Source: Moniliella sp. 'wahieum'
Lineage: Eukaryota
Reading direction: 5' to 3'
Assembly: GCA_003971905.1 (NCBI GenBank)
Contig: RSEE01000064.1
Coordinates: forward strand, 248,001 to 312,000
DNA: 64,000 nucleotides
This document shows, in pieces, positions 1,703 to 61,167 of the stretch. A program made the position numbers and the translations under genes. Below the pieces are notes generated by a model, which saw only the letters and a program-made list of their open reading frames with translations, did not search any database and had not been told where the DNA came from. Each line of letters begins with the position of its first letter. Within the stretch, counting starts at the first letter, position 1.

Positions 1703-4700
1703 GGTGGGCGTGCTTGGGAGGGGGGTGGCGGGCGGAGAGAGGAGAGAGAGGAGGAGAAGAGAGAGGAGAAGAGAGGACGGCAGAGACAGAGGAGGGAGAG
1801 AGGATGGGTGGATGGATGGATGCGGGGCGGCGGCCGGAGGAAGCGTTATATGCGCGGCTTAAATTGGCGCAGGACGGATGATGGGGGTGGGTGACGCAGG
1901 GCCCATGCACGCGTGCCGCACCAGGGCAGTGTGGCGTGCTGCTCGGGTGGCAATGCTAATGCAGCTGCGTCCCAAGCAAACGCCGCTGCACCCTGGCGGC
2001 GTGCCCGCACCAAGCGAGTGCTGCGTCCTGAGCGGGCGTGCGCTGCGTCCTGGCAGCGCTGGGCGCCGGGTGTTTGTGCGCGGTGCAGTGTGCGTTGTGC
2101 CGCTGCTGCACGGGCACAGCCTGCCGCCGCGGTATTCAGTATGCAGCAGCTAGCAGCCAGCTGCCGCGCTCGCCGACAGCCAGCACGCATTCCACGCGTG
2201 TGTCCTGCGTGCGGCGTGCTGCGTGCTGCGTGTGTGCGCTTGTAGCCGGCAGTCCCCTTGCAGTGCGGTCGTCTGCTCCCTGCAGCCGAAGCGGAGGCCA
2301 GTGGGCCTGGGCCTGCTACGCGCCCCCCAGCCCACGCGCTCTACGTGAGGCACGGCACTGCGTTGCGTTGGGTTGCCCCAGACGCTGCGCGGACGACAGC
2401 GCTGTGCTCGTGCCTGCACCGGCACCCCTCGGTTCGGACCCAGCAGGACCCGCGCGGCAGAGTGCCCCCGTGCGGGGTGCTGCGACAGCGGCCATGCATG
2501 CGGGGGTGCGTGCGTACGTACGCTGGGCTCGGCTGAAAATGACCTCCCGACTGCGGCGGTGTGCTGCCTACGGACCGGCATCATCTATCCTGCGGCCGCC
2601 CTCATGCATCCGCCGCGCCCACCGTGCCTGGCTCTGCAGCGACGGGCAGACGACCGCAAGCAGCCCTCGCAGCCCACGCCTTCTGATTTGCCGCTGCTCC
2701 CTTCTTCGATCATCAGTAACTAGTAACATCAGGCCAGGCCACCCCCCCCCCCGTTTCGTCTGTGTATCTAGATCGAGATCCCACCGCCCCTTCTCCGCCT
2801 GCCCCCCTCAGCTCCTCGCGACTCGATCGCCTGTTTTATATCGAATCGAGCAACCAAAACACCCCTTTCCGGACGGAGAAGACAAAAGTATACACAGGTC
2901 TGCGGGTTACTGCGTGGGTGGCATCATGTGTGGAGCTTCATACAAGTCAAGCTTCAAGAAAGAAAGAAGCAAAGAGAAAAAAGCACGGGGGATGTATAGA
3001 TAGGCAAACTCCTACGCACGCACGGTCCACCGCAACACATATAGTGAGCAATCCCGCCGCACTACTGCCCAACAAACAACTGTTCTATCATAAAATCAAA
3101 CCAACAATGCTCCAGATCAATACGCCCCCCCGCTAGATCTCCGTCTCTCCTGTCCTTGGCGTGCCGCATCGGCCAGGGTTGGGACGAACAGACTGGAGAG
3201 GATAGCAGTTGGAAGACTCGATCAGACACCCCTTCTCCCTCGTTGAAGGGAGGGGCATATTCATTCAGGCTGCATGGAATTATGATGTCATGTAGGTACC
3301 AGAAAGAAGGAGAAGCAATGATCGAAATGATCCCACGATCAGCAACACTGATCAGAGACACAACATACCCTAAGAGGGTCAACAACTAAGGAAGACCAAG
3401 AAACGGCTCATATACGTACAGCCAGTGTATGTGTGTGACCTGTCACTTTTGTCCCTTGTCGCTGCCAAGCAGAACTAGGAGAACGACTACAAAATACTCT
3501 TGGCGTGTGCGTCAACAGCGAGGAAAGTGAGTTATATGCATGGTATTATTCCTCCCATGTGTCTATCTCCCGCGTAACAGGTACTCAAGAGTCTCGCCAT
3601 GACGTCAAACAGGTACCGACCATGGGAACACTACAGTAGTAGTTTTCTCTTTGTGGGCCAGAAGCCGAAGAGATATGACACACGATCTTGGCTTTGAATT
3701 AACATGGTCAGTTTCGCCTCATTAGTGCCCTTACTGCCTAAGAGGAGGGCGCATAATATAGAGGAAGATTAGTCGAAGGTTTACTAGTACCGTCCTCGCC
3801 CGAGCGGGAAAACTAGTGTGGCGCCAGCGCGCTCAGTCTCCAGGGCTTGACTGTCAGCGCGAGTGACGAAGATGGCTATCGCGATTGCGATTGCGATGAT
3901 GATTGCGGGGATGATGTGTCGGACGACGGTTTTTGTTATTGCGGAAAATAGATATCAGTCAAGTGCTTCGAAGTCTCGGCGGGCTCAACTTACATTCGCT
4001 GCGTCTATAGCGTGCAGGCTGTGCCATATGTACACACCCGGTAGGGCTATTGTAACCCTCGTCCCCTGTTGCTCGCTTGACGTTCTGCGGACGGTAGGCC
4101 GTACCTACACCAACGGCTAATAGGGGGGGGGGGGGACGACAGCGCGTGCGTTCACAGAAAGAGATTCATGAGATGGTGTGATACTGAAATAGGAACGGCA
4201 GAAGTGGATGGGTGAACAGCACGAACGCTGGCAGGCAGGCCAGCGGAGCTCGTACTCTCCCCCAAGTCTCAGAGGAGGCGAGCATTGGCCGGCGGGGGCC
4301 AACAGCGCCTCTACCCCACCTGTTTTCCTGCTCTCAAGATGACTTCGAATCGTACCCCCACGTTCAAAGGAAGGAGGGCGTGCCAAGTATCCAAGTACCC
4401 AGTCCTCGTTTTAAGTGTTGTTTGGTCGGAGCAGGAAGGAGTTTTACCCCGATCGTATGCCCAAAGTCGGAAGGAGAAAAGGGCATACCTCGCGATTACT
4501 TTCCCGTGGGAAAGGAGAGATGTGCGCACGGGTAAGCGTACACTCCTTTCCTCTCTCCCCGTTGTCGGGAGGGAGAGAAGCCCATCCATGGAAGGCGTGC
4601 GGACACGCCTTGTGAAGGGGAGCGTAATGTCACGGGCTGCGGCGGACCCGAGATGGTCCGACTCAAGCTATTAAGGCCCGTCTGCTCACCGCACATGCCC

Positions 4701-4959
4701 AGTAGAGCGTGCACCGCAGGCCAACCAAGTGTGATGATGGTTGGCAACTTAGGCGCCGTGGCCCGAGGGGCCATGCATCTGCGCGACAATAGTCGCCTCC
4801 CGCCCAAGCCCAAGTCGGCTGGCCTAAATAAGGCCATCGAGCTTCCAGTGTCGTTGCGACGACTGTCGCCTCTGTCCCCGTTTCCTTTTTCTTTCTCGGT
4901 CGCGCCTGCGGCTACCAACCCCACATTTGACGTCTCTTCCTTTCTACACCCCTTCTTGT

Positions 4960-5340
4960 ATCCGTTTTCCTTTTGATCTTGCCTGTATCCATGGTTGATG
5001 GAATCCTTTCCCCACCTTCCATTCTCGTCCACCCTCTACTCTCGTTCTTTCCCCCTACTCCTGCCCGTTTTCCAGCCAATTGATCCAGTACAGGCAGCTT
5101 CCTCTTGTTAGCGTCCAACTTCTCCCCCGACCTCTCGTCCTCCAGCAATCCGTCAGTCCAGTCGCGCGAGAGCCCTCCTCTGGTCGCGTCGATTTCCAGT
5201 CTCTGTTGAGGCAGTGTTGTCCCCCTCTGCCTCCTCCCGTCCCTAAATCCTGGAGGCTTCAGACACGTTACTACGACCCAAGCCGGTGCAGACGCAGCCT
5301 TGCCACACGAGCAGCCGTCCCATCAAAGGCCTCTCCTCGT
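4960..5340 (+). repeat. Dispersed degenerate repeat, copy A (probable transposon relic)
   Basis: Shares GCCTGTATCC.TGGTTG, TTCCCCACCTTC.ATTCTCGTC and GCCAATTGAT(C/T)CAGTACAGGCA with 15240-15460. Shares CCTCCCGTCCCT...AGGCTTCAGACACG.TACTAC with the reverse complement of 13850-13960. Confidence 0.75.
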
Positions 5341-5593
5341 CCCTAGCTTCTCTCGGATCCACCAACCAGCCCAAGCCCGAAACTATCGTGAGTCGACCTA
5401 CCGTCGCCTAAGGTATTGTACCCCAAAACCCCAGGGCAGGCCCCGTGGCGGCGCCCACCGGTGACAATGGTTAGTTGGATGTGGATATATATGGGAGAGA
5501 GAGAGAATTGAGGATAGGTTCACCCCACGTCTCATATCAGCCCCAGCGCCGAAACGAGTGAGTACCCCCAATACAAGCTCAAGCCGTGCCATC

Positions 5594-6511: not shown

Positions 6512-7065
6512 TGGTCGTGAGAGATGGAGGGACGTAGGTTCGAAGGCGAGGATGGATGGAATGGACGGCTTAAATATTTTTGCAAGTGGCTTCCACATTT
6601 TTTTGTGTTGATTCGTTGCAGAGGCACCACGATGACGAAGAAAGTGACCGAAGGAGCAGGAGAGGGGGGTGGGTGGCGCAGAGGCCGACGGTGCTGAGGC
6701 TGCCATTTCCACGGTGTGCCGCTCCATATGCCACCTCGAATGCCAGAAGAATCTGACTGATACTAAAACTTGACGCTTGATGTGAATCTTGAAGGAAGCT
6801 GAGAGGGTGCTCGGAGGTGTACTCGAATACTTCTCCAAGTTTGGTTTCATCTTTTATCGATCATCGGTTGGATTGATCATCCAGGACGAGTCAGGTGACT
6901 TGTGACAGGCGACATCACATGTGACATGTCACATCCCACTGCCAACCGCGCCAGGAGGTGAGCACGGACCTGCACCAGGAAGGTCGAAGCGGCTGCGGAA
7001 CCTTCTCAGTGACGGGTGGGGTAAATACATTCCCCAGCCCCCACCACCTCCATCTCCTCCGCGCC

Positions 7066-8682: not shown

Positions 8683-8719
8683 AGAACGCATGCATTTCCA
8701 GGGAGTTTCGGCAGGGCTA

Positions 8720-11700: not shown

Positions 11701-13600
11701 ATAGGTACCATCATTGCTCCTCACTAAATTTTGACGCCAACACTGTGGACAACCTGCATGGAACGAGCAATACGATCTCAGGTCTGCTTTATATTCATGT
11801 GGCGCCTTAGGAAGGTGGAGACAGTTCACAGAGTTAACAAGGGCGGTGGACGGATCTGCATGGTGAATCTGTGAGTGAGTGTGCCGTAAATACACCAAGT
11901 GACGAGGGTGCCTGATCTGGTCTTGTTGCAAGTGAAAAGACTCTCCCGTTCCGATAACATAGTGACATCATCAGTCCAGGTGGACAAAATGCAACGGGTG
12001 TCTTTCTCGTACGTCCAATTGTCTGGTTTCTCCCCCGGGCCTAGAATTAGGGTAACCGCGCTGTCATCATTTCTCCACAAGATGGCTCAAATATATTGGG
12101 AAAATGAGCGATATGTGTGTTGTGCGGTGAACTGTGGATGGATGTAGTAAAATGATAACCCTCCCGAATAGCTCCCACCGCAAGAACCATGTTCCCATTC
12201 GCAGTAACGGACAAGGATAATGACATTCTGGGTGAATTATTTATCTTCTTTACCGTCCGCCCGCAGTTCAGGGGCCGAAGTTATTTGGGAAGAGGGGTTG
12301 AATAATTCTGAGACAAACTGTTATGGATCGTCCTTGGTCTGGCGGAGATATGACAGTACACTGGATGCGATAGTGCCGATTCCGCATGCCTATTTTTCGG
12401 GTGCATCCTTGAGGCAGTCAGTACTATTATCTTTCGCAGGGCAAGTTTGCACACTATTGCCACCGACGTATGGCTCAGATGCACGCAATGCAATTCATTA
12501 CGAGTTGTTCCCTCTCTGGTGAGTCGAGGTAGTAAATATGGGGCTCTGGGCGAGCGAATGTTCCAATGCGTGCCGTCTCGGTCTCTCTCTGCCAGTAATC
12601 ACCCTTGAATCTAGCTGCCGAGTGCGGCATCCTCCTGTAATGTGTTGCATGCGTGCAATGAACGCTATCTGAACTCCCTCCGGATGTACAACGTAGCGCC
12701 AATAGCACTAGCTCACTCCGCTTGTCTGCGGAGCATCCTAACTCTATCGCACATTGAATTGAAGAGAGTTTCGGTACTTTGAAGCCTCTAATGGTTTTGC
12801 GTGTTGACACCATTTCCCGACACGTTTTTTATTTGATTCATCATTCTGTGTTCCGACTATTATGCCCCAACTCCCCTCACTGTGCATTGCTGATTTCGTC
12901 ACAAGGCAAATAGAGTGTGCCGCACTGATTTCATCATTGGAACAGGGGTTTATCTCCTGGTCTGCCCCCATCGCGTGGGATCAGATTCGTCAGATACATC
13001 GCCCATGGCACGTCAATGACGTTTCTGACGTTCAAGGGATTGACGTCGGCGACTAACTGACCTGCAGGGGGATGACATCGAGGACATATCTGACGTTCAG
13101 GGTGGTGACATCGACGACGTAACTGACCTGCAGCGCGCTGGCAGAATTGCCTCACCCACGGCAAATTACTTCTCTGACATTTTTGAAGGTATTTTATATC
13201 TTAAACATAAATGATGTCTTTTCGGGATTCGCTGTGCTAGTAGCGCATAAGATCGATCATCTCGCCAGGTATGTGTATACTTATTTCATTCCGAACACCG
13301 ACATTCTCATTAAGTCGGCTGCACGGAAGAAGAAGAAGCCGCTTGGCCGCGGACTTGTGTTGGGGGTAGAGAAGGTCAAGGATATACACCACCGCTACTA
13401 ACGTCGGGAAGAGGGGGAACGTTTCATACTTCAAAAGAACTACGTGGACCACACCTTTCATAATAGGCAGGCGACAAGGTGACAGGACATGGAGATGGGG
13501 AAAGGACGAGGATCATATCCATTGAGTGGAAAGAGGGCGAGCTATACATGCCTCAGAGAAGAAGAGATCATGCGAGCTGAATCATACGAAGGAAGAAGGG
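8720..13600. other. Lower-GC, ORF-poor island, possibly a decayed element or pseudogene of unknown type
   Basis: Visibly more AT-rich than flanking genes (sample lines 37-53% GC). No microsatellites and no ORF above about 116 aa. Minus-strand frames read as protein-like stretches broken by stops; no family recognised. Confidence 0.55.
13010..13135. repeat. Degenerate 33-bp tandem repeat x4
   Basis: GACGTTTCTGACGTTCAAGGGATTGACGTCGGC / GACTAACTGACCTGCAGGGGGATGACATCGAG / GACATATCTGACGTTCAGGGTGGTGACATCGAC / GACGTAACTGACCTGCAGCG, in an alternating A-B-A-B pattern. Confidence 0.85.
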
Positions 13601-14290: not shown

Positions 14291-15239
14291 GAAGAACAGG
14301 GTACAAGGAACAACAGCGGGGGGGGGGGGGGGGGTTACCGCACGCGCAATCTATAGAAAGGTAAACACGGGCAAGGGGCGACCATCGTCGCAGAATACCG
14401 ACAATTCCGTTGCACGATTGCAGCCATCAACTCTTCCGCTTGATCATCATGGAGCGATTATGATTGCTGCGTGTGACGGGGTGGCTGGCTTCCCAGGCGG
14501 AGACCTTCCCTGCCCATCGGAGACGGTACTCACGGAGGACTGAACGCGTTTCAGATCCAAAGTCCAAGGCTCACTGGCGTGAACGAAGGAGGGTCGTGAG
14601 TGGTGCCTTGCGGTGCGTCGAGCAGAGCCTGAGCAGCGGTCTGCAAGCAGAGGTTGCGAAAGGTGCAGCGGTCCACGAGCAGTTTGCGTGTGTAGGGGCT
14701 GACGCGAAGGCGGTGTGCTCCGATGGGCGAGGGAGGGCGAGCGAGCTGAGCGAGAGGTGTTCCTTCTAGAAGCGGAGAGTCTAGAAGAAAGGGTGAAAGG
14801 GGAAAGAATGGTCGGCGGCTTGGGTCATCATCATTGGATCTAAGAACAGGCACGTTTTATAGAAGAGAAAGGGAACAAGGCAAGACCAAGAGGTCTACAG
14901 AGTAAAGGGGAAACGAGTCAAAGGGAAGAAAAGAGGACCAATCGCGAGAGGGACGAGGCGAGAGACGAGAAGAGGGTCAAGGGCAAAATGGACCCGAGAC
15001 GAGAAACGAGGCGAGAAAACGAGTCAAGAAACCGTGTGTTGTGTTTTGGATTTTAGACGAGCGCGAGCGGAGAAACCAAGATAGTTGTGGGTTTTGTTGA
15101 TAGGAAGACGATCCGAGTCAAGATAGCGAACGAGAAGAGAAAACGAGTCGAGATAGACGAAATAGGGAAAAAAAGCCGAGAAGCGATAGAGTCGATAAGG
15201 AAGTGGAGGCGGCTGTGCAACGCGGTTCAGACGTCGCCC

Positions 15240-15460
15240 CGGCCTGTATCCCTGGTTGGTGCTGGGTTCAATTTTCCCCACCTTCTATTCTCGTCTCTTC
15301 CCGCCTTTCTGTCCAACTCCCGCCCGTTTACGGCCAATTGATTCAGTACAGGCAACCTCGTCTCTACTTATAGCTGCCTCCACGCCTTCCAACCTCGTTC
15401 CCCAACTTTCCATTCGCCCACAGTCGGTGAGCCTCCTTTCATTCAGCGGCGATGAGTCCC
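15240..15460 (+). repeat. Dispersed degenerate repeat, copy C
   Basis: GCCTGTATCCCTGGTTGG...TTCCCCACCTTCTATTCTCGTC...ACTCCCGCCCGTTTACGGCCAATTGATTCAGTACAGGCA, collinear with 4981-5096. Confidence 0.8.
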
Positions 15461-21865: not shown

Positions 21866-22124
21866 GCTGGCGGTGGTGGTGGTCGTCGTTCACAGCGTCG
21901 CACGCAGGGGCATCGCCGGCGGAGGCAGCGGCAGCGGGGGGCAGACGAGGGGCAGACGAGGGCAGACAGACGGGGCAGACGAGGAGCGCAGCAAAGCCAG
22001 CCAGCATGGCCTGTCGAGTATTAGTAGCCACACTGGTGGTTGGAGGGCAGAAGATTGTGCGTGTCGGCCGATCCAGTCCCCCAATCAGCAATCCATATCT
22101 ACGCTTCGTATCATAATCATCATC

Positions 22125-22290
22125 ATCCATCCATCCATCCATCCATCCATCCATCCACCATCCATCCATCCATCCATCCATCCATTCTATTCCATTACAT
22201 ATCATCCCATCCTATCCCATTCCATCCCTCTCCTCCCCTCCCCTCCCATCCCATCCCATCCTATCGCATCCCATCCCACCCACCATCGCC
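22125..22290. repeat. (CATC)n and (CCCAT)n microsatellites
   Basis: Directly visible tandem repeats between ATG26 and the BRCT gene. Confidence 0.9.
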
Positions 22291-22476
22291 ATCCCCTGCC
22301 CGATCGCCCCCACCAAGCCACGGCGAACAGGGGTGGCCAACCCTACGTCTATCGACTTGGATGGTCATCCATGGGCGATCGATGAGCAAAGCCAATGAGC
22401 TCATCCTCCAACATTGCTGTCTATCACGTGACGCTATGGGATGTGATTTGAGTGTGATGCACCAGTCACTCCGTGC

Positions 22477-23928: not shown

Positions 23929-24072
23929 GGATGGAGGATGGGGATGGAGGATGGAGGATGGAGGAGGGAGGATGGAGGATGGAGGATGGAGGATGGAGGA
24001 TGGAGGAGGAGGATGGAGGATGGAGGATGGAGGATGGAGGATGGAGGAGGATAGGGGAATGGAGGATGGAGA
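23929..24072. repeat. (GGAGGAT)n heptamer microsatellite
   Basis: About 18-20 near-perfect units immediately upstream of the BRCT gene ATG. Confidence 0.95.
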
Positions 24073-24678
24073 TGGAAGTTAAATTGCATTCCCAGTGGAA
24101 TGTTGATGTTTGTTGTGTTGGCACAGGGCGAGCGAGGCAAGGCGGCGCGCATCACCTGCATCATGCATCCGCATCACCCTGCTGAGGCCTCATCGATCAT
24201 CGTGGACGTCATCCACGTCATGCACCATGGATGATTGGTGACTGAATTGTGATGGCTAGATAGACGATCTGAGATCCAGCGCAGACCGCCCGGCCCACGG
24301 CGTGGTTCTGTCCGGCAGCCGGGTTGGGGTTATTATTGGGGGGGGATTCCATCTTGGCTTGGGCGACGCTGACGCTCAATCTGGCACCCAGCACGCTCCC
24401 GTTCCCATTCCCGTTCCCGTTTCCGTTTCCGTTTCCGTTCCCGTTCCCGTTGACTTTTCGCGTGGCTGGAGCGGACGCGCGACGGGACTGAGTACTGAGT
24501 ACTGACGGTGCTGATTCGCGACTGGCTGAGCTGAGCGACGAATGATGTTCCCGCGGCTGCTCCCTTCTGTCGCCCGCGCACCCGACTACGCGCCGCAACT
24601 TGCTTCTCCCTCGGCCCCAGCCGGACAGGTGCCTACCGTTCTCCCACCACCCGCGTCGCTCGCACACCACGTACCACC

Positions 24679-26658: not shown

Positions 26659-28645
26659 TGCATCGAAGGAGAAATGCGGTGGCGGGGATAGGGGGGTCAG
26701 GCGGCCAGCGTCAGTGGTCGGGGATCGGTTGGGTCTGGAGTGGGTTGCGGTCCATGTTCCATGTCTATATCCTGCATGCTAGGCATCGATGCTCTCTCTT
26801 GCACCTACCGTCGCCAGTATATTCCCACCATGCATGCCCACCATACGCCAGTATATCCCCATCATACGCCAGTATATCCCCACCATGCTCACCACCATGC
26901 CATCATGCCCACCATACACACGATGCACGCCATAACGCCCGGCCGACTGGGTCGGGTGTACGCACGGCGATGCTCCTCGACTCGGTACTAGGTACCCATA
27001 CCCCTCCTGCTCCCGCGCTCGAAAAATGGGTCGATTCAATTCAATGGTTCAACGGGTCGCGGATTCAGGATCTCGGATTCAGGATCGCGGATTCGACGGA
27101 CCGGTGGATCACGAATGGTCGAGAGCAGTGGAACGGGGCGAAGAGGGAGCGAAGGAGAAGAAGAAGGAGGAGAAGAAGAAGGAGAAGGAGAAGGAGGAAC
27201 CGATACGAAGAGGGTGGGGCGGTTCATAGACCCCAAGCGGCCTGAGAAAGAAAAGACCAAAGAGAACCGAGTCAAACGAGAAAAGGGGCAAAGACAAAGG
27301 AGAAACAAAGCGAAAAGCGAAAAGCGAAAAGCGAAAAAAGACAAGTGGAACAGGGGGAAGTGATGTGAAGGGCAGGGAAAGTGAACTCTGAACTGAACTG
27401 AACTAATATGGGGGTGGAGTAGAGAGGAGAGACGAGAAGGGGAGGGGAGGGGAGTGTAGCGTGGGCAACGGCGAGTACTGAGTACTGAGGCGAGAATCCA
27501 GGACCGTGGAGGAAAGGCGAGGGATGGAGCAGGGTTACCATGTTGCATGTTACAAGGCAAGGGGAACGAAGGGAAACGGCGCGAGGAAACAGAGAGGAAG
27601 AGACTGAGGAAAACGAAAGCAAAACCGAGAGGAAAGCGAAACAGGGGCCGAACAACGAGGCGAACGGAAACACATCATATTGTGGCATGTGGCATGCGAG
27701 GTGTGGCATGTAGCATGCGACGTGTGACATGCGAGGCATATGAGATGTGACATTGCGACATGGCAGGAGGAGACAAACTGACGTCGGCGTGTCCTGGAAA
27801 CTTTTTGCAGTCGCAAGCCAAGCCCAACCAAGCCCAACCAAGCCCAACCGAGCCCGACCGAGCCTGAGCCCGACCGACCGCCCGACCAACAGGAGTGCGT
27901 GGACCGAGCGCACCAGCAGGATTTATCGATTCTCCATTCTCCATTCTCAATGAAGCGCAGCTAAACGTTAACAACACGTTGCCGGTAACCCGTAACCCGT
28001 AACCGCGCCAAGAAACGCCACCGCGCACGCACAACCAATCCCACGCATAGTCTCCCACCAACGAAAAAAACGAAGCCAAAACGCAGCAGAAAAAAAGAAA
28101 GAAAGAAAGAAAGAGATCATCGATCATTTAAAGATTAATCTTTGAACAGTGAAACGGTGAACGTGAACAGTAGTGAAGCTTGAAGCTAGGGAAGCTAGGG
28201 AACCTAGGGAAGCGTGAAGCTAATGGAGCTTCCGTGAAACTCTAGTGGAGCTAGTTGAGCTTGAAGCTAATGACTAGCTTGACTAGCGTGAAACGTCCAA
28301 GTGAATCCAGTGGTCATGGAACATGGAACATGGAACGGCCATGGAACGGCCAAGGGCCGAGCCCGAGCCTGGCCACCAGAACCACCACGGCCACCAGGTC
28401 ACACAAAAAAAACAGAACATAAAGGGGCCAGAGCGCGGAAAGTGAGGAGCTAAGGTGCTGCGGGAAGGAAGGAGAGCGGGAGCGGAAGGAGAGGGGAGGG
28501 AGAGACAAGGGAGGCAAGGAAGGTAAAAGGTTGAGTGTTGACGATTCACGTGAATATTGAGGAGTTTAATATTGAGGGGTTGAAGGGTTGAGGCCTGAGG
28601 GTGGGGGGGGGGTTGAGGGAAACAGAAACGGGCATGGAGACACGC

Positions 28646-30879
28646 TTACGGGTAAATGCGATCAATGTCCTTCTTATACTTGGCCTCGACCTTCTTACGT
28701 TCGATTTTCTGAGCGGCAGTCATGTCCAGTTCGTCCGGGACAAGCAAGACAGTTTGGAGCAACTGGAGCGGGGCAAAGCGAGCGCCTTACCCGTGGCAGT
28801 GAGGGAAGCCAAGACGTACTGAGCAACCGGTTTCGAGTCGCACAACTTGTGCAAGTCCCAGTCCGGTTCGACGCCAGGCACGTCACCAGCTTCAATGCGG
28901 GTGCGCAAGTTGGCTTCGTTGGGGAAGACGACGCCCATGGCCTTGTTAGCGTCCGAGTTGGCAACAACACAAATGTTACCGACCAAAACGTTGCTCTTGT
29001 ACGTGCTCTCCAACGCTTCCAGACCAATGTACTCCCCGCCCGCCAACTTGACCAAATTCTTCTTACGGTCAATCAACGACAGTGTGCCGTCCTTGTTGAA
29101 TTGGCCCACGTCGCCCGTCATGAGCCAGCCCTCGTCGTTGATCGTTTCCTTGGTCAACTCGGGCTGCTTGTAGTACCCGGCACACACGGCCGGACCACGG
29201 ATCCACACCTCGCCCTGCGGTGGGTTGTTGGTCGCCTTGTACCCAGCCTCGGGCACATCCACCAACTTGACTTCGATCGCAGGCGAGATGACGCCGACGC
29301 TCGACATGGAGTTGAACTCCGGGGTGCAAATGGCGCACATGGCCGACGACTCGGTCATACCGTACCCCTGCAGAATCTGGACCAGGGTGGTATCGATAAA
29401 GGTTTGGGTGGCGTGCGAAATGGGTGCGCCGCCCGACAAGGACAAGCGCAGTCGGCCGCCCGTCTGCGCCCGCACTTGGCCAAACACCAAATCGGCCACA
29501 TTCTTAACCAGGGGCAAGCCGCTCGATTTGAGCGCGAGCGCCGTGTTGAACACTGTCTTTTTCAGTGCACCGCCTTGGTTCACCTTGGCCAAAATGCCCT
29601 TGCGGATCGTCTCAAACACCGTCGGCACGCCCACCAACAAGGTAGGTCGGAACTCTTGCAGATCGCCCTTGCAGTTGCGCACGCTGGCATTGGTCAACGT
29701 CTTGACCCGGCCATAGCCCAACGTCAAGCCCAGGTGGATCAACGAACATTCCGCCACAAATTCAAGAATGTGCGCCAGGGGCAGGTAGGCCAACAAGGTA
29801 TCGTCCGCAGCAAAGTACGGGCCGAGGAGCAAGGTCACCGTACCCACCGATGACACGACATTCTTGTGCAACAGCAACACACCCTTGGGCTGGCCCGTGC
29901 TGCCCGAGGTGTACATGATGCAGGCCAACGAGTCGGGTGAGGGCAAGGTGGGTTCCCGGTCCACCGTCTTGCCCAGCTCAATGAGCTCGTCGAGTGTCAA
30001 GGTTTTGCCGCCGCGTTCGGTCAGCACGGCATCGAGCGCGGCAGCCTTGCCCGCCTCGTCCTTGCCATCGTAAATGACATACTTGAGGTGGGGCGTGTTG
30101 GCCACCACCTTGGCCAACATGGGCAGCAGATTGGCATTGGTAAACATGCCGACCACTTCGGGTTCGTCGAGGGAAAAGGTCAGACCATCTTCGCCCAGCG
30201 TGTCGTACGCCGTGCAAAAGACGATGCTCTGGCGGAAGCAGGCGTGGGCGACAAGCTGCCAGTTGAGGCTGTTGGAGGGTTGGGAAGCAAGCAGCAAGTC
30301 AGTCCACCCACTCGAAAATCAGAGCGGTGAGATAGCGAGCAACACGTACCAGGTCTGGGAGTAGATGTTGAAGTGGGTGTCCTTGTTGAGGCCGAGGGCC
30401 AAGAGACCGTTGGAGATGGCCTTGACCTGCTCCAGCATTTCCGTGTAGGAGATGTACTGCGGGGGTCGGGGTCAGAAGAAAAGAAACAAGAATGGGGAGG
30501 GGAGGAGAACATACGTGGTAGTGGGACAGTTCGTAGAACTGCCAGTTCTTGGTCTCCTTGATCTCCTTGCCGCCGACAGTCTTGGTGACCTCCTTGGCTT
30601 CGTGTGCACCTTGATCACGTCGCGCCACCCGGCGGCATGCTTGGAGCCAAACTCTGCGGGGGGGGGGGGGGGGGGGGAGGGGGTCAGGAGTCCGAGGCAC
30701 GCGGGGAGGAAGGAGAGGAGACGTACTTTTGGCGGCGGCGGGCAGGAGGTCGGCCATGGTGTTGATGCCGTCGGCGGGGCGCTCGACGAGGTGGTCGGGG
30801 CTGAGGAAGGCGCGGTGGACGCGGGTCTCGCCGGGGCGGGCAGGGCCGCCGACGGGCGACGGGAGTGGGAGCGGGCCAT
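28646..30879 (-). CDS. FAA1: Long-chain fatty acyl-CoA synthetase (Faa1/Faa4/Lcf1 family)
   Basis: GETRVHRAF; EAKEVTKTVGGKEIKETKNWQFYELSHY; TAYDTLGEDGL; CIMYTSGSTGQPKGV; LAYLPLAHILE; LSGGAPIS; QGYGMTES; GWLMTGDVG; IDRKKNLVKLAGGEYIGLEALES; TAAQKIERKK...IDRIYP*. Introns 30726-30654, 30514-30457 and 30349-30269. Confidence 0.96.
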
Positions 30880-33488: not shown

Positions 33489-34646
33489 AAACAAACCCAA
33501 ACGCGTACCGTTTTCGCCTTCACCTTTTACGCTTTAAGCTTTATCCTTCACCCTTCACCCTTCACCTTCACCCTTCACCCTTTACGCGTTCGCCGTATCC
33601 TTTACGCTTCAAGCTCCAAGCTCCATGTTCCCCTTCCGGTTCCTGCCATTCACGTTCCACTTGACTTCCTGCACATGCATTTCCTGCCCTTTGTCTTTTA
33701 CTCTTTGCTCATTTCCTCCTTTCCGCCTCAATCAACTTCTCTACCTAGGAAATAAGGAAATAGTCAAAATCAACTTTTCTCGCTAGGCCCCAGCCACCCG
33801 TGCACCCGAGAAGCGAGAAACGAGAAGAGAACCCCCGCCCATGCCATCATCCATCCTGCCCTCCCTGGAAGACGGGGAGGGGGGGAAGCAATAAGCAGTA
33901 CAGCAGAGACACGTGGCCAATGGCGGGGAAACAATCAAGCCACGAAGTAATCAAGAGTAGGCGGGAAGGGCGGGGGGAGGGGGGGGATTGCTCTATATGC
34001 TCGATCCGTTCGATCCGTTCCATATATGCTCGCTACGCTCGGTATGCGCGGTACGCAAGCGGAGTAACCAACGCAAGTCAGATCAGTCAGAGGAAGAGAA
34101 AAAAGAGAGAGAACAAGAGAAAGAAAAAAGAAGAAAGAAAAGAGACGAGCTCAGCAGAGAGTAGAATAACATCACAAGCGCGTTCTCGTTGCATTTGCCT
34201 ATCGCCTATCGGCTATCACCTATCGCCCCGCCCCTATTGCCTATTGCCTATTGCCTATTGCCTATTGCCTCTTGTGGGTTACAAGTTACAGGCAGACGCT
34301 GAAGCGACCAACCATCAAATCGAATCGCCTCGGATCGAATCGCCTCGGATCGAATCGCCTCGGGTCGAGGGAGAGGAAAGAGAGGGGAAATAGTGGCAGG
34401 GTACGACGTGCCGGGGTAGTAGGGGCCAGACAAGGAGAACGTCCGGGAAGCGCAGACGCAGGTGGCGCAGAGCGGGGCGCAGAGCGGGGCGCAGAGCTGC
34501 TGTTGTGATGTGATAGGGACACAAAGGAACCGAAGGGGTAGCGAAGATGATCGATGAGGGGAGATAACAGAGAGGATAGAGAGAGGATAGAGATGAGGAT
34601 CAGGCACGATCCAGATCCCGATCCCGATCCCGATCCTGATCCCAAA

Positions 34647-40528: not shown

Positions 40529-43500
40529 CGGTGGTCTGGAAGCAGGGAAAGAGGGACGAAGAGGGTAGCTGTTGCTGGCTGGTCGGCGGTGGGGGTTGGG
40601 GACGGCCATCTCCCTTTATACCCCGTCCGTGGACAGCAACGGATAGCCGCCCGCAGCAGAGGGCGTCCCAGTGGGCAGCATGTACCATGTATGTCATGGC
40701 GCCCAGCTGCGCCCCGAGGCTGGCGCCGTGCTCGTCAGCGCGTCAAGTCACTAGGGACTAGGGGTACGAGAGTCGCAGGCCTACTACTAGGATGATCGAG
40801 ATAATCACCATCGATCATCGACCACTTCTCCCATGTTCATGACCATGGCACCGCGGTCACGCGGTCACGTTCAGCGTGCAAGTGAACGAGCCCATGTCAC
40901 ACGTCCTGTTGGTGGCCATCCAGCCGCACCCGCAAGCGGCTGGCCTGGCCTGGGCTTGGACGGCGACAGTGCAGTGCTCCGACCTGTGGTATAGGACTGC
41001 TAGGACGTGCGCCGGACGAACCTAGGCGACCTAGGCGACCCACAAGGCGACTCAGTACTCATGACGCTTGAAGCTACCCACGCCTGTGGCCCACAAGCAG
41101 GTGGTGCGGATCAACCCAGCGAGACTGGCGGTGTACAGTGGGGGGTGAGATAGCAGCTAGATCGGCCAGTGCGATCAGAAATCACAGATCGGTGTAGATC
41201 GCACCGACGCCGGCCGTGTGCCCATCACATGTCATGTCACATGCTCCCACCGCCCTCACACAGGCCTCAGGCTCAGGCCTCACAACCCCGTCTTTTGGCC
41301 GATCGCTAGCACAGGGCAGGTGTAAAGGCAGTGAGGCCGTGAGGCCTGAGGATTGGGTGCCGTTTGCGTCTCGTGGGGAGAGGGTGATGGTCAGCCTGAT
41401 CGCTGAGCCTCAGCAGCTCGGCCCGTTTCTATCATCCACATTATCCCCTCTTTGCACCCGGCAGTTCTGCGTGTGGCGGTCAGAAGAAGACTGGCAGATA
41501 ATGTTGGGGCCCTGAAGCCTGAGATGCTGAGGGCGTTGAGCCTGTGTGTGCATGTGATCGATGATCTGAGGCGGGTGTGCTATACACATTGGGCAAATGG
41601 TGGCACAAAATGGACACCCTCGGCACACGGCGTATACTATTACTTTGCGGACGCGTCCTGTTTCCTCCTATCTGCCAAACTAGATCATGTTGGAGGATGA
41701 TCTCGATGCTCCCTCAGCACTCTCGGGCTGACACTGAGTACTACCTGAGGCCTGAGCGAGCGCTCAGGCCGCTCAGGCTGAGCGCTGATCGATTGTCCTG
41801 AGTTTGATGTTGAGTGTATCAGTGATGGTCCTGCTGATGCTCTAGAAGCTGCTCAGGCTGAGCGCTGAAGTGAACCTGAACGTCTAAACGCCTAAAGGCA
41901 TCTCGTCATCATGATCGATGATGTCGCTGATGCCAGGATGGAAGAAAGTCTCTGTCGGCGCCTAATGTACCTCTACTCCGATCGACGAACAAGGCGGTGG
42001 CGACACAAGCATGGTCTTCACCGGGGCTCACATATGTTCATCGGCATCGGTTCTATCTATGCAATCAACAAGAAAAGCCCCAAATCTATCCCTCCGTCTT
42101 GCTGAAATGGCTCATTCTCTCTCACCTTGCCGCTGCTGCCAATGCATACGGTCCTGGCTGCCTCTCTGGTTATCCATGCGTGGTTGCGAAGTTAGGCCGG
42201 TGTTTTGGCGGATGCTTACTAGTTGGAGCATGATGCATGATGCATGGGATGAAACGTGTGTGAGGGCCTTGAAGTCAAGCGTCAACGCGTCAAAGCTTCA
42301 AGCTTCAAGCTTCAATGTCTTCAACAGGAAGGTCAGTGGATGAAGACCATCTACGGTCTAGCTTGCCGCACAGAGACACCTACCTACTCTCACTCAGTAC
42401 TCATCGATCATCGTCCATGCATGGTTACTACTAAGGCTTAGTACTAATCGACGTACACCCCCGAAGAACTTCATCGATGCCAATAATTTACCTTGCACTA
42501 CACACACAATCCAAACGAAACCGAAACCCGGCCAAAATGTGGTTCTCTCTTCGAGCGTACGCGAATCCATGTCACAACCCTTTTCTTGTCACTTTGGCGA
42601 GACGGACATACAACAGACTCGATGGCGATGCGATCCATGATCCATGTTCCATCGCGGTTTCTCACCGGCGCACGAGTGGTGCTTCTCCCGCATCGCAACA
42701 TTAACCTCGGCAGTGAAGTGTGACGATGAGAACGTACATGAACCTATAGCAGGGTTCTCAACCGGAGAGATAGATGCTTTCAACGTGCGTGTTTGCTTCA
42801 GGTCTCCGAACCTGCCAGAGATTTCACTTAATTTGCGCGCGTGAGGCCCTCAATAGACCCGAAGTCTGATGGTCGATGCGATGGCGAAGGTGGTCGAGTC
42901 CGTATCTGGAGAAGTCGTACTACCAATGGAAGAGGAAGAGAGCGGTCTGGGGGGGAAAGGGTACACTCCGGTGACAACAAACAGTATGTTGTGCCCAAAT
43001 CCACTGCAACATCAACACCAATCATCGGCCCGTTGATCCATATTGGGGCTTTTGGGCACGAGATGCGGATCTATGCCAGTGATGCTAGGAGGATGCATGA
43101 TGCAGGTATAATGAGGGATACATATACCATGGTTTATCGTATCGGATGGTCTTGGCAGCCTTAGGTGGCCTGCTTGTGGCAAGCCGCCAAAACCCGCAAA
43201 CTGCACAGTCCGTTTTGCCCCAAACAAGACTCGACGGATGGGGTCCAATCCGCAAGAACCAAGAACTTTACTAGTTACTGCCATGGAAGAACCAACAACA
43301 ACAGCGTTGCATGTCGATGTGTATGCCAGCGGGGCATCCGGTGTCCATGAGGGAGGGTTGTGTTGACATGTCAAGTTGACCGGCCTGGAAGATCTCCGAG
43401 CAGGCTGCTCTCTCGGCCGCCCATTCCAAGATCGACCCTATTAACCCGCCGACATACAAAGTTGGACCACCGACGTTGAAATTGAAATTGCACCGTGCGG

Positions 43501-47506: not shown

Positions 47507-47550
<44 letters not shown>

Positions 47551-47817: not shown

Positions 47818-47856
<39 letters not shown>

Positions 47857-52036: not shown

Positions 52037-52182
52037 TGTTCGTTCCAGTCCAATAGCCGACGCACGCGCGTCAGGCAGGTTGGACGTGTGGGTTACTTGG
52101 GTACTACCGACTACTCGGTCCTTTTTATTGCTGGCGATCACTACCACTCCTATCCGCCACCGGTCACCGCAGACAAAAAGAA

Positions 52183-52251
52183 TGGACGAACAGGGAATTG
52201 AACCCCGGACCTCATGCATGCTAAGCAGCGCTCTACCCCAGCTATCCGCCC
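52183..52251 (-). tRNA. tRNA-Ala(AGC)
   Basis: GGGCGGATAGCTGGGGTAGAGCGCTGCTTAGCATGCATGAGGTCCGGGGTTCAATTCCCTGTTCGTCCA. Acceptor GGGCGGA/TTCGTCC with the G3:U70 Ala determinant, loop TTAGCAT, T arm CGGGG-TTCAATT-CCCTG, followed by TTCTTTTT terminator. D and anticodon arms look a few nt short. Confidence 0.9.
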
Positions 52252-52713
52252 TTTGTTAGTTTAGTCCCTCCCCCCCGTATCCAGACCCGAGTTGGGACGT
52301 ACACTGGAACCCCCGCCAAGCAGCGACCCACGCACGAACTGCTTCCTGTCCTATCCTCCTTACCACCTCTGGCGCTCCCATTGCGCAGACACAGCACAGC
52401 ACCCCATAAAACAGAACAGAACAGCAATTCAGTTTGGAGCCAACCGGGGACAAAACGGGACACGCATTCTGGCATACCGGGGGAGGGGCGATGGGAGAGG
52501 AGGAGGGAGGGGGGGGGGGGGATCAAGAAAAGGAAAAAGGAGAAAGACGAGAAAAAGAAAAGGAGAGAAGGAGAGAAAGGAGAGGAGGGAGAGAAAGGAG
52601 AGAAAGGGAGATCGAGGGGCAAGAGAAGAAAGGGGAACAAAAGGAAAGTAGGGCAAAGATGATGGATGTGGAACGCGAGCGACCCAACCAGCCGCCGCAA
52701 CCGAGTTTTGGTC

Positions 52714-55700: not shown

Positions 55701-58466
55701 CCGACAGCAAACTGCTTACCCGCGCCCGTCGGTCCACACACCAAAGTCAACCTTCATCCACGGTAAGCGTAATATTGTGCAAGGTAAACTGGGTCTGAGC
55801 CAGGTCGGAAGAGCTGGCAGCCGAGCTGCTCGCCGCGTCCGGAGCGACCGTCTCTTGAGCCGGGGCGGATTTGCGCCAAAAGGCCGCTTTGGCAACCACC
55901 TTGCGGACCGAAGCAAAGCGCGACGGTTTGGCCTTGGGGGTAGGATCGTCAAGGGACTGGGTGTTGTGCCAGCGGAAGGTCGCGTTGGATGCGATGACAT
56001 TGTCGCGCAACGGCATGCTGGCCAAGGTAACTGGCCGGTGAAGTGTACTGACTCCCTCGGGCACCTCGGGGTACTCGAGGAAGCGTTCAATCCGACGCGC
56101 CGAGACAAACATGCTGACTGAATGGTTGATCATCATGGGCAGAACGCCCAACGGCTTGTTAAGTTGCTGGTACAGGTTGAGTGCGGTGAATGCGACGGGG
56201 ACAGTCAAGGTTTCTTGAACCAGAGCGTGTAGGAGGCAAAGCCAATCACCGAGATGGAGGCAGGTGCGAGGGCCGGGACCAAATGAGACCTGTGATAGAG
56301 CCGACAATGTAGCGCAAGAATTGCAAACGAAGTTCTTGGTTGCGGAGCTTGATCACGCGCTCACTAAACTTGCCTTCCCAGTTGATCAGCTTGATCAAGC
56401 GCAAGTTGTTGACCAGCTCGGACAGTGCCGCCATCCGCGAGTCGCGTACGTTGCTCGTGCGCTTGTACAGCTTGATCATCTGGCCCATCACCACCGACTG
56501 GATCGGAATCACAATGGGCACAATGGCAAAGCCTACAAACGCCGACCAGCCCAACTGTGTGTAGAGCATGATGAGACAGATGGTCAAGTCGAGCGGCGCG
56601 CCATACAACAGGTATAGCATCGATAGGAACATTCCCACCCCATTCGCATCCACCGACATGAGGCTTACCGCCCGCCCGACCCCTTGACCATTCTGGTTCT
56701 GCTCTGCCTTTTCATCTCCACGGCTTCCTTGGACGCCTTCTTGTCGTCTTCCTTAGCCTCGGCACTCTTCCCTTCCGACGAGGCAGCCTGCGTCGAGTCG
56801 GTGTCCGATGACGTCTCCGACGTGGCGTCCTTGTCCTTGTTCTCCTTATCCTTATCTTTGGATGCGTCCTCCACAGCGCCCGAGATCCTTGCAGCGCATG
56901 CCCTTGGAGAACATGGCGCTGATCAGCTCGCCACGCGTGCGCACCGCACAACGACGGCCTGCATACAGGTGCAGCAAGTCGGCCTCGGCCCCGCATGCAA
57001 CGAGCAACAGCCCCAGCGCAGCAATCGCATACGCCGTTTCGTGACTGGTGTACGAACCACCTTTGACGAGCGCCATCCATACCTCGTGAACGCCCAAGTT
57101 GGTATCCGAGTTGCGCTTGCCGGATTCGATGCCCTCCAGTACGCGTTTGAGCACAAGTGGCTTGGAATACGAAAGCACAGTGCTTACCACCTAGGGAGAG
57201 GGGGGGGGGAAGTAATAGAGTCAGTTTCCTTCCCTCTTGCATGCATCCCGACAGAAGAAAAAAACAAAAGCAAACAAACGAGAAGCACAACGTACAGTCA
57301 AAGACAAGTCGAGCAACAGATCGCGCGAGTTCATCGTCCAGATGCGCTTTACAATCCCCATGCCCTGCAGCTGACCCCACTTGCGATCCAGCACGCGCGC
57401 TTTCAAGTCGGCGCCCAAGCGCCACACATCTTCCTCGGCAATTTGCCCTTCTTGGACGCCTGGAGCAGCGAGTCGATCCAGCGGAACGTGCACCACTGCC
57501 ACAACGAGCAAAATGCTTCGGGCGAGGTGATTTTCGAAGCGTCCATGTTCGGGTTGGCCGGCGCGGTAAGGCGCGACTTGGGCGCTGCTGTATCCCAACA
57601 CGGCTTGCAACTGTGGTGTGAGCACCGAGAGCGGGAGGGAAAAGACGAGGTAGAGAGCATAGAGCATAGAGAGAAACACGATGCTGCCCGTTGCCGCGAG
57701 GCGTACCAGGCCGGTGAAGCATACAGCCCCGACCCATCGTACCACGTAAGGAAGACCAAGTGCAGGCGTACCACCGAGCTAGCCAGGAGGACCAAGAGCA
57801 ACGCAAGCGTATCGTACGACGGCGTGGGCTGGGGGCAAAAGAGGGTGCGCACCAGCACGTAGGCCCATCCGGCCGAGTCGAGAACAAGGTCGGTAACGAC
57901 TTGCGACCATGGCTCCTCGCCCGCATCCCACATCTGGCCTGCGGCCACATAGCAAAAGCGGGCCAAGAGCACGCCCAGGTGGATGAGACTGACGACGCTG
58001 AGGCCAATGGTGACGCTAGGTGCAGGCCAGCGCGGGGACGCAGCACTAGCGGAGGCAGGCAGAAGCGGGGTGTTTTCGGTAGCGGGGGCGTCTACAGGTC
58101 GGTGCCTTCGTCGTCCGAGTCGGTCTGGCCCCGACTGCGTTTCTCAGCGTCGAGGGAAATGGCAATGTCGTCGACGGAAACAAAGGGCTGGAAAGAGCGG
58201 CAGAGAAAGGCAATGCCAGGCAGGCCGAGGACAAAGTGCTGGACGGGGGCGTAGGACCAGAGGGCGTAGAGGAGGACGAGGAGGCGGGGACGACGTTGGA
58301 CAGGACGGCGAGGAGGGTGCGTTCAGTCCAGTGGGACGAAGGCGGGGGCGCGGCGGCGAGGGCGGCGGGCAGGGTGTTTGGCCTCGGCAGGGCTGGCGAG
58401 GGGGAGGGCGAAGGAGCGCATGAGCCACCGCGCCTCGAGAGGCGAGATGGGCATGGCAGACTCCAT
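52714..58466 (-). CDS. Full-size ABCC (MRP; Ybt1/Bpt1-like) ABC transporter
   Basis: TMD1 [27 protein letters not shown]1 [50 protein letters not shown]2 [36 protein letters not shown]2 [65 protein letters not shown]. Several introns and frameshifts; start approximate. Confidence 0.96.
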
Positions 58467-60133
58467 GGCGGCCAAGCGAGGGGAGGGGGCGGGGGAGGTG
58501 GTGGTGGTGTGGGCAGCGCAGACGACCGGGCAAGAAGACGGGATGCAGGCGGCGGTGGTGATTGAGGTGATTGAGTGATGGCTGATGCTGCCCATCCGGA
58601 CGGGGTGGCGGCGGGGATGGGTGAGGGCGAGTGGCGATGGGTGATGCTGCGGGTGATAAACGATGCATGCTTGTCCACCAATGTCCACGTCCACCTCCCC
58701 TTGCACCCCTCCACCCCGCGGAATTTGGTGGTTGATTGTGACAGGCACACAATCCACACGCCCGGCGTGGTACTGCTGGTCGACCGACGCTGCGTCCGAG
58801 ACGCATCCTCCCTGTGCTGGCTGCTGCGTGCCTGGTTCGCTGCCTGGCAAAAACAACACGTGGTCCATCCGCTGCACAATCGTACTCCTCATCGGCCCAG
58901 GCGGAATCCCCGTCAGCGAGATAACCAGTTGAAACCGACTCGGCGATAACATTCAATATTCACACCGGAGGCCGCATGTGTGTGGCGGCCTGTCGCACGC
59001 ACAACCATCCATCCGCACACACCGCCTGCCCCCGCCCCGCCGTCCCCCGCGCGTCCACACATGTCCACACGCAGTGCCCAGCTTCAAGCTTCTCACGCTG
59101 CTCACGTTCTCAGTTGTCAGGCACTCTGATCCCATTAGTGTGCAGCAGCTGGTGGACTGCCCGTTGGGTTACGCAGAGATGCAGCCTGCGTACAGCTGTG
59201 AACGCCATCCCAATGTCCATGCCACATGTCATGTGGTGCCTCGAGGGCTTTCGGTGTACGGGTTGTCGACGCGTCGCAGTTTGCCAAATAGGATGGGCTC
59301 CAGACAATCAGTACTCGGTAACCAATCAAGCTTCAAGCACTCAAGCCCACACGCCACACGGAGAGCGGCAGGGCGGCTGCGGTGCCACACACACAGGGCC
59401 ATGCTGTTCCGGTACATAGAGTGGCACGCCCAAGCCCCAGCCGGTTGGTTCCCTTTGGTGTTACATGTTGCACGTTACCGGTTACCGCGTTATCGGTACC
59501 AGTTATTGGCTGCTTAAAGCTTAAAGGCTCAAGCTACACGCTACAAGAGCGTTAAGTGACTCCAGTGACTCCCATCAGGCGGTGCCGATCACTGCAGGCC
59601 TGAGCCTCAGGCCAACTAGTGACTCTAGTGACTACTGGTGACATCTGGCCCATCCCTTGCGACCTACAAATCAGTGCACCACGTGTAAGAAACGTCGTCG
59701 ACGTCACCCCCTTGAAGGTCAAGGTCAGGTACATTGTCGACAAGCCATGTGGCCTTAGTACTTAGTAGAGATGGTATTCGTCGGTCTGGCCGGCCAAGGC
59801 ACGTCACACTTGCTTGCTCTATCTGCTGCTGCTTGGCTGTCTTTGGGGCGAGACGACAAGCGGGGTTCGTATTTGGTACAGGTACAATGCGCAAGCAGTG
59901 GATCCGTACCTGTGGGAGAAGGATTGGTTCCATGGCTTGGGTTCTGCCCGGGCGTGCGGATGGGCGGCCTGGACTAGCGGGGGTGCAAGCTCCTGGCAGC
60001 TGGGTGGTGGCGTGCTGCGACGCGGTCCAAGGTGCGCTGATCAAGCGACTTGGAACTGGTAGTACGGAAGCGGGGCATCTGACTGTCTAGTTAAACCATA
60101 GCATTGCGATGGTCATAACGTGGTGTTGACGCC

Positions 60134-60167
<34 letters not shown>

Positions 60168-61167
60168 AGTGAAGTGATTCAACCACGCGCGGGTAAAACG
60201 GCGGGAGTAACCACGGCGGCTCTCTTACGGTAGCCAACTGCGTCGTCATTTCATTCTGACGCACATGAATGGATTCACGAGACTACCACTGTCCATCTCT
60301 GTGGTGGGCGCGTCGCGGTAAGTGGCATAATCGTCACTTCTGATTCCGGCTTGGCGCCCTTGAGGCCAACCCTCCCGAACCACATGCGACAGATTCACAA
60401 AGAAAAAAGAACGGCAACGAAAAGTGAATTCGCAATTTGATCCGCCCCTCCTTTCCCCTGCTGCGTCTCTGCTTCAGAACCTCACTGTAAGTACACCCTC
60501 GGGGGCCACCCGGGCTGGGCCAGGGATGCCCCTCCCACATCAGTACTCAGTGAGTACCCAGTCGAGAGACCAACAATCACATCTAGATGTGACGCTGGAA
60601 CCGTGATGTACAGATATAGGCGCCTGACATCATCCGGATTTTTGCTTATAAGTCTAGGGTCGTGATGCGTAATGCGTAAGTAATGCCCCAGGTAGGCCAG
60701 AATATATGAAGCTGAAGAGAATCGGGCCGCAGGCGCTACGGATCCCAAACCACGGTCGACCGCCAGGTAAAGTTACCGAAGGCATGCCTATGCCTTGCTG
60801 GTCGGGGTAGGCGTCAAGGGGAAGGGGTTGGGGGTGGGGGGAGATTGTCACGGTTTGCAAACCGTTACTCGTTTCCGGTGGAAAAAGATGTGACAGCTAG
60901 AGCTAGAAAAGACCAAGTCAAAGAATTGAGGTATCTCGTCAGGAATGCGCAATCGCGGTTGGAACCCATGGGTCGTGGAAGGACATCCAAATATGAAGGC
61001 AATCGTTATGTCGTGTGTCGTTGCGTCGTCACGCCGTCACGCCTTCACGTCGTCAAAGTGTCAAGGCGCCAAGGCAGGAATCGAGAGAACAGGTGAATCA
61101 CCACAGTACCTGTACGCGGCGAGATCACGGTTGCTCGAGCATCCCTGTCGTAACAGAAGAAAGGAGG

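Follow-up and report, generated by a model that had tools for sequence, protein, structure and literature searches.

Palindromic TNA units between the genes of the window

The window analysed here comprises 64,000 nucleotides of Moniliella sp. 'wahieum' (contig RSEE01000064.1 of assembly GCA_003971905.1, positions 248,001 to 312,000 of the forward strand), and its genes include those for an Atg26-type sterol glucosyltransferase, a tRNA synthetase, an ABC transporter and an AMP-binding enzyme. The glucosyltransferase finds its best named relatives in the Ustilaginomycotina, at 62-64% identity. Between the genes, a short pattern recurs in which two TNA triplets enclose a 4-bp palindrome (hereafter, a unit). 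This pattern is real, and we consider that the units are probably footprints left by the excision of a cut-and-paste DNA transposon whose 7-bp target duplication is centred on TNA and whose departure leaves the flanks as hairpins.

A first-pass annotation had described 33 10-mers of the form TSA-palindrome-TSA (S, C or G) and nine variants with TWA triplets (W, A or T). All 33, coordinates and spacers included, and all nine variants were recovered from the window, together with three TSA units that had been overlooked (10147 GGCC, 31338 CGCG and 58953 ATAT). Over the whole 64 kb, the spacer is palindromic in 36 of 95 TSA-N4-TSA 10-mers, as against a mean of 2.6 (maximum 6) and 5.5 (maximum 15) palindromic TSA units in Markov simulations of orders 2 and 5, respectively (25 simulations of the window per order). 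The excess survives when 7-bp arrays are collapsed (31/81 TSA units). One or two enriched hexamers do not explain it, since 15 of the 16 possible spacers occur, and 4-bp palindromes on their own show no enrichment.

An independent sample of 200 kb came from other contigs of the genome, as 20 pieces of 10 kb whose coordinates were fixed in advance. There, 108/236 TCA/TGA direct pairs and 29/59 TAA/TTA direct pairs were palindromic, against a background of 0.059. Counting over 36 preset 10-kb stretches gave 188 runs in 360 kb, from which we estimate ~36,000 runs by extrapolation to the 69.5-Mb assembly, the sample having excluded small contigs. The units are absent from coding-like DNA, in line with the first-pass annotation: none of 204 palindromic direct units falls in a coding-like mask, where ~20 would be expected at equal density. 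This mask, drawn without annotation, is conservative and covers part of the genes (19.4 kb of 214 kb).

Spacers copied from the flanks

While the TSA-palindrome-TSA pattern stands, the true rule is narrower, namely TNA-palindrome-TNA with the same N on both sides. Among the 33 units described initially, 27 are direct repeats and six are mixed TGA/TCA forms, and W cores (TAA, TTA) act like S cores (TCA, TGA). With a 4-base spacer, 177 of 393 TNA direct repeats are palindromic against 24.6 expected, and length 4 gives the sole large primary excess among spacer lengths 1-12, the excess at length 11 being the second period of arrays. Odd symmetric spacers remain near background (3-base, 72/257 with 64 expected; 5-base, 13/151 with 9 expected), and ANT, CNG and GNC cores show no palindromic excess over background. 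The central N is repeated rather than inverted (138/312 for the direct form), and the perfect-palindrome forms are mildly enriched (TGA..TCA 15/49, TCA..TGA 6/38).

These counts bear on a possible origin by replication errors, in which fold-back template switching and slippage in a genome rich in tandem repeats would make the palindromic heptamers. Tandem repeats are indeed abundant in the window (278 entries), and the mild enrichment of perfect palindromes would also suit such errors. However, plain fold-back or template switching, which the first-pass annotation had put forward, would invert N and act at ANT, CNG and GNC, and neither is the main class. We regard replication errors as an improbable source, and the indels and junctions described below bear on them further.

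The first-pass annotation had also taken the spacers to be interchangeable. Instead, local sequence fixes each spacer, which is a copy of the adjoining flank. Among 152 collapsed units, a copy of at least two flank bases is found on one side in 128 and on neither side in 13; an exact two-base copy is confined to the left in 23/152 (L2,R0) and to the right in 20/152 (L0,R2). Of the 40 direct units in the window, 32 show such a flank copy. A unit is thus the 7-mer xyTNAab plus seven bases, in the form xyTNA-ab-b'a'-TNAab (right copy) or xyTNA-y'x'-xy-TNAab (left copy), where primes mark complementary bases. In the genome sample, the kept side is never AA and rarely TA; there is a tendency for GA, TC and AG to be kept and for CG and CC to be lost. 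This skew may stem from sequence preferences when hairpins are opened or joined, or from decay of CpG.

The assembly contains a second collinear copy of the contig (G000:C90, reverse strand, against window positions 3629-64000), so that the genome looks like a hybrid or a phased diploid. This homeologous copy served as a natural control for gain and loss of units: 192 kb were aligned, in long blocks at 84-96% identity. Clean insertions or deletions (indels) between the copies number 24, 41, 53, 27 and 18 at lengths of 5, 6, 7, 8 and 9 bp, with a local peak at 7 bp. Among the 53 of 7 bp, roughly half (27) lie at TNA sites, with 10 exact non-tandem pairs of empty and filled sites and 17 tandem cases; four more obey the inverted rule at other cores, and 22 are of other kinds. 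The 17 are formally tandem duplications, as replication errors could produce, but the ten exact non-tandem +7 events argue against such an origin.

Of 139 clean units with alignable flanks, the other copy is exactly empty in 12, empty-like in 22, shared in 101 and unclear in four, 32 further clean units being unaligned. The units are thus 7-bp insertions or their reversals, and lineage-specific scars amount to ~0.5% of substitutions (34 against 6,750). Shared units and their flanks diverge per base by 0.055 against 0.048 and by 0.045 against 0.055, with no sign that units are better conserved than their flanks.

A second suggestion of the first-pass annotation was a selected DNA-binding grammar whose symmetry or shape is read, as in an origin, a boundary or a nucleosome-exclusion element. 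The units are non-coding and clustered, as such a grammar would have it; the densest cluster (41.0-42.4 kb; 41050..42447) lies in non-coding DNA between two divergent open reading frames and packs 16 TNA-palindrome-TNA units into 1.4 kb. However, the absence from coding DNA already follows from frameshifting, the flank dictates the spacer, units are frequently gained and lost in steps of 7 bp, and shared units show no conservation beyond that of their flanks. Since the junctions described next also obey break-repair logic, we consider a binding grammar very improbable as the origin of the units, with later co-option of some arrays possible.

If flush hairpins on a 7-bp duplication were reopened and joined, the spacer should consist of the first bases of the left overhang followed by the last bases of the right overhang. 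At TNA, this fit was found for 242/552 4-base, 36/273 5-base and 31/370 6-base spacers, compared with 36/288, 5/198 and 2/236 at the ANT control. Where a full 7-bp duplication encloses a 2-base insert, the insert is inverted in 36/56 cases at TNA and in 2/17, 4/55 and 1/54 at other cores, and a 1-base insert at TNA is inverted in 29/37. The stretch duplicated around TNA on both sides of the junction measures 5 to 7 bp. Such 2-base inversions have no loop, so fold-back priming could hardly produce them, which again speaks against replication errors. Flank-copied spacers, 7-bp indels between the homeologs and the series of +7, +8 and +9 junctions together support the remaining proposal of the first-pass annotation, a TNA-targeted cut-and-repair footprint.

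The hairpin model predicts at most two spacer blocks per heptamer array, matching the left and right flanks. Among ten mixed all-palindromic chains, seven fit fully, two fit on one side and one has three blocks. Of the arrays, 32 are homogeneous and 76 contain a non-palindromic spacer, and slippage probably helps arrays grow.

Individual sites of the window illustrate these classes. Left-copy units lie at 2715..2726 (unit 2717, ag-TAA-CTAG-TAA) and 58951..58962 (unit 58953, at-TCA-ATAT-TCA), in both of which the homeolog lacks seven bases, and at 34546..34557 (ga-TGA-TCGA-TGA). Right-copy units are found at 2947..2958 (TCA-AGCT-TCA-ag, common to the homeolog), 41555..41566 (TGA-TCGA-TGA-tc, where the homeolog has the exact empty target) and 60540..60551 (TCA-GTAC-TCA-gt). 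Full 7-bp duplications with two inverted bases (+9 class) occupy 3317..3332 and 34076..34091, and that at 41762..41777 has two bases consistent with the inverted rule. A further +9 junction (59618-59633) accompanies units 59326, 59475, 59515 and 59755 in a cluster at 59326..59766. Another cluster, at 27473..28600, holds units 27479, 27962, 28117, 28174, 28551, 28566 and 28589, with seven bases absent from the homeolog at 28174.

At 41330..41351 (unit 41340), two successive GGCC junctions (+8 and +7) face a single empty site in the homeolog, which is 15 bases shorter. The chain ac-TCA-GTAC-TCA-TCGA-TCA-tc at 42392..42412 has two blocks, one from a left-copy event and the other from a right-copy event at a single target. 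Heptamer arrays with GTAC (24487..24505, 2.7 copies), TGCA (42228..42247, unit 42231, one unit of seven bases shorter in the homeolog) and AGCT (42296..42314, units 42298 and 42305) are present as well. Mixed N is seen at 6915..6931, where the middle triplet of two CATG units is TCA in the homeolog, so that one base separates the mixed form from a direct array, and at 24183..24201, where a mixed-N GGCC unit and an adjacent TCGA unit have one triplet in common.

Other features of the window lie beside these sites. The locus of the glucosyltransferase spans long CATC/CCATC and GGATGGA tandem arrays (22124-22295 and 23929-24076), and the AMP-binding enzyme gene (28645-30460) has paralogs, 71-72% identical, at the ends of contigs C8 and C77. 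Metagenome scans yielded three distant relatives (24-29%) of a window protein, with palindromic counts of 3/11, 0/0 and 0/27 at their loci. A long terminal repeat (LTR)-like repeat of 770 bp (14472-15241) occurs in at least 25 places, with pairs ~5.8 kb apart on C75 and C46, and a second LTR-like repeat (4625-5467) is common to L022 and L044. Positions 12978-13238 hold a 260-bp piece of a longer interspersed family, with an internal 33-bp repeat, that is absent from the homeolog. On C90, three insertions of 250-400 bp, one opposite 42719-42739 and two at other sites, have the same GC-rich terminal hairpin and resemble a further family like Helitrons or short interspersed elements.

A candidate element and a proposed origin of the units as scars

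A candidate family with terminal inverted repeats (TIRs) of ~80 bp is present in the genome as five copies of ~4.9 kb (C11:228-233 kb, C23:154.5-159.5 kb, C29:72-77 kb, C34:500-505 kb and C35:44-49 kb) and several partial copies, and one end is located in L144. At each end, two bases precede a CACTG motif (CT-CACTG), and in one end subterminal 7-mers recur 4-5 times in 284 bases in both orientations. A census of TIR ends, whose search pattern favours TNA among poorer matches, gave 139 matches; among the 100 listed, nnTNAnn flanks 13 of the 17 ends that depart from the first 15 TIR bases at one position or none. Four end pairs, on C34, C35, C23 and a 0.4-kb copy on C20, have a perfect 7-bp nnTNAnn duplication. 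The C34 and C35 copies have a common target and are probably one insertion. At one end (G000:C8:478687), the TIR is flanked by TGA-AG and two inverted bases, the arrangement that would arise if the end of the element were joined again to an opened hairpin of the flank; this is a single case. The metagenome scans gave no match to the TIR.

We infer the hairpin, its opener and the joining path from the products, and propose the following scheme. Insertion at xyTNAab would duplicate the 7-mer, as seen in the perfect duplications of this one TIR family. Excision would then seal each flank as a hairpin whose tip lies where the duplication ends; a flush hairpin is suggested because the palindrome is even and no base is lost. 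A host nuclease may open the hairpins mostly 2 nt 3' of the tip, which would give 4-nt palindromic 3' overhangs, ab-b'a' on the left and y'x'-xy on the right. End joining that retains one overhang and drops the other would yield xyTNA-abb'a'-TNAab or xyTNA-y'x'xy-TNAab with a net gain of seven bases, and less trimming would yield the +8 and +9 classes; all these products are observed. The target would survive and the new inner site would be symmetric, so that repeated visits and slippage could build heptamer arrays of at most two spacer blocks. Scars would thereafter be neutral, and would be purged from coding sequence, where seven extra bases (+7) disrupt the reading frame.

As to the agent, we lean slightly towards the CT-CACTG family of ~4.9 kb or its kin as the maker of most scars, with a CACTA/EnSpm-like element (CMCT clade) as the likeliest type. 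Spacers predicted from the targets of this family are more frequent in arrays (25/41) than in single units (118/321, p=0.004).

Transposase searches of the genome add to this picture. PF02992 (Tnp2) matched on C17 and, weakly, at C34:514.9 kb. The C17 match (556-559 kb, L140) is a Tnp2 transposase pseudogene that occupies the same place in both genome copies (C62:280.5-284 kb), with frameshifting indels of 1-2 bp in both and 30 synonymous against 107 non-synonymous codon changes. A domesticated cutter encoded there was rejected, since both copies of the gene are decayed and no inverted ends turned up in the 11 kb scanned around it. An atlas lists RAG1 among the look-alikes of Tnp2-type transposases (0.92). 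No genome match was found with the hAT domain PF05699 or the KDZ domain PF18758, for both of which the control genomes were blank too, or with the MULE domain PF10551, whose control was positive in 3/14.

Several observations weigh against the footprint reading or against this family as its agent. The C11 copy has unequal flanks, and four of the 17 listed TIR ends lack TNA. The transposase of the ~4.9-kb copies was not seen, these copies being known here from their ends; neither PF02992 match lies inside one of them, and no inverted ends accompany the C17 gene in the 11 kb scanned. Scans for TIRs with a 7-bp duplication over 454 kb and 840 kb gave no convincing element. In the 192 kb aligned, no locus has the element and an empty or scarred site as alternative alleles, and the large insertions between the homeologs are LTR-like, with 5-6-bp duplications, or have no duplication. 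The empty and filled pairs are unpolarised without an outgroup, and the 5-bp repeat can bring about renewed loss of the seven bases. Of the 34 lineage-specific calls, 22 are inexact, and the alignment is poor for at least one (41746). AATT spacers are absent (0/193, with 9 expected). Scars are about a thousandfold more numerous than elements. Finally, surviving copies sit nearly all in S-W-TNA-W-S sites, and this bias is absent from one-sided scars (14/217 against a background of 7.7%), whose logo is flat. This mismatch implies that further families exist, or that copies in such sites are those that stayed, or that the cutter acts without this element.

The last of these possibilities amounts to an element-free cutter, either a host nuclease or a transposase-like enzyme that is orphaned or domesticated. 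It would cut genomic TNA sites with a 7-nt stagger and hairpin the filled-in ends, and the scars would be a standing mutational signature without a resident transposon. The contrast of ~36,000 runs with about five full-length TIR copies, the broader targets of the scars, and the finding that some scars are lineage-specific even though the C34/C35 copy is older than the division of the genome copies all suit such a cutter. On the other hand, the genome does contain elements whose 7-bp nnTNAnn duplication is exactly that predicted, the sole syntenic Tnp2 gene pair, decayed in both copies, is no domesticated candidate, and the rate of lineage-specific scars seems within reach of a few mobile copies. 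We therefore consider an element-free cutter unlikely.

A Helitron-like family of 1.0-1.35 kb could also be imagined to make units through its nicking enzyme. This non-autonomous family (L013:5655-6917, L095-L139; 132 end matches) has asymmetric ends and inserts between A and T without duplication; its flank is AT-rich, with a T seven bases from one end, and three copies carry the same end twice. It is often found inside heptamer arrays (among others in L097, L104, L113, L128 and L137), which would fit a causal role. However, it makes no target duplication, and its insertion point, read by eye, lies 0, 1 or 2 bases from the palindrome centre, varying by copy, as would be expected if an AT dinucleotide were all that the element requires. 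This family, at first sight a TIR element, was rejected as the source because its ends are asymmetric and most copies lack a duplication. Formation of the units by this family appears extremely improbable.

Relation to known systems and wider meaning

The footprint reading invites comparison with known systems. Flank hairpins are made by hAT, Transib, MULE and RAG enzymes (PMC5499845), and Artemis opens RAG hairpins mainly at +2, giving a 4-nt overhang (PMC2175297). V(D)J coding joints with P nucleotides have the same even palindrome centred at the break, with rarer +1 and longer forms, and the 4-nt palindromic 3' overhang of the main +2 opening equals the spacer described here (PMC2175297). 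Unlike in V(D)J joining, both ends here carry a 7-bp duplication centred on TNA, and the junctions are highly uniform and scattered genome-wide, with a main class free of untemplated bases.

The candidate element resembles CACTA/EnSpm elements in its CACTG near each end, its ~80-bp inverted ends and its subterminal repeats, and Tnp2 (PF02992) remnants are present in the genome. It differs in lacking 5'-CA..TG-3' termini, two extra bases preceding CACTG. Duplications in the CMCT clade, to which Transib and RAG1 belong, measure 2-5 bp (PMC12730594), whereas the candidate duplicates 7 bp (2+3+2). CNIRT6 of Cryptococcus neoformans has a TIR that begins with CACTG and a 3-bp duplication (PMC12810828), and CACTA footprints in Arabidopsis are described as varied (PMC6379663). 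The two extra bases at the ends and the 2+3+2 symmetry of the duplication suggest a shifted cutting register. We tentatively propose, as a possibility rather than an expectation, a CACTA-derived lineage whose cuts moved two bases outward at both donor and target and which, kept at few copies by continual hit-and-run movement, wrote the ~36,000 RAG-like coding joints. In the boldest form of this proposal, the enzyme would now cut TNA sites without an element.

Footprints of hAT elements are odd palindromes, since the initial nick falls one base inside the flanking DNA, and odd-centred palindromes are not enriched here. Flank hairpins and inverted bases in footprints are features of hAT elements (Ac/Ds, Hermes and Ascot-1). 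With its 7-bp duplication (PMC12730594), hAT7 of Puccinia offers a fungal precedent. The MULE Muta1 forms a hairpin of both full flank strands (43+43 nt), with 8-10-bp duplications and >90% precise excision (PMC5499845). The genome described here differs from it in its 7-bp duplication and has no PF10551 match.

PIF/Harbinger and IS5-type elements prefer and duplicate TWA/TNA targets and thus share the TNA at the target centre. Harbinger duplicates 3 bp (PMC12730594). Such a duplication could not place ab to the left or xy to the right of the junction, as the +7 and +9 classes need, and a Harbinger-type 3-bp TNA duplication was rejected on this junction geometry. In the smut Ustilago maydis, small scattered '10-bp repeats' have been suggested to be transposon footprints (PMC4081816), as we read the units here; the brief description used for comparison gives neither the sequence nor the structure of these repeats and mentions no palindrome or TNA rule. 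In the open-access literature, excluding supplements, we found no account of a genome-scale TNA-centred 7-bp flush-hairpin footprint.

Palindromic-base footprints are known already from single loci and reporter assays, and here one stereotyped junction occurs an estimated ~36,000 times. For motif finders this is a warning, since the top non-coding 'motif' of the genome is probably a scar. If the footprint reading is true, this fungal genome would show by the thousand, in natural outcomes, how hairpins are opened and ends joined, and a testable reading would become available for the small repeats of Ustilago maydis, so far unexplained. A CACTA-like lineage with a 7-bp duplication would lie outside the 2-5 bp reported for its clade and, should the shifted-register proposal hold, would be a new transposon lineage. 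The scars would then record how the cell healed its breaks and would seed new 7-base repeats, giving a class of heptamer microsatellites a start that is independent of slippage.

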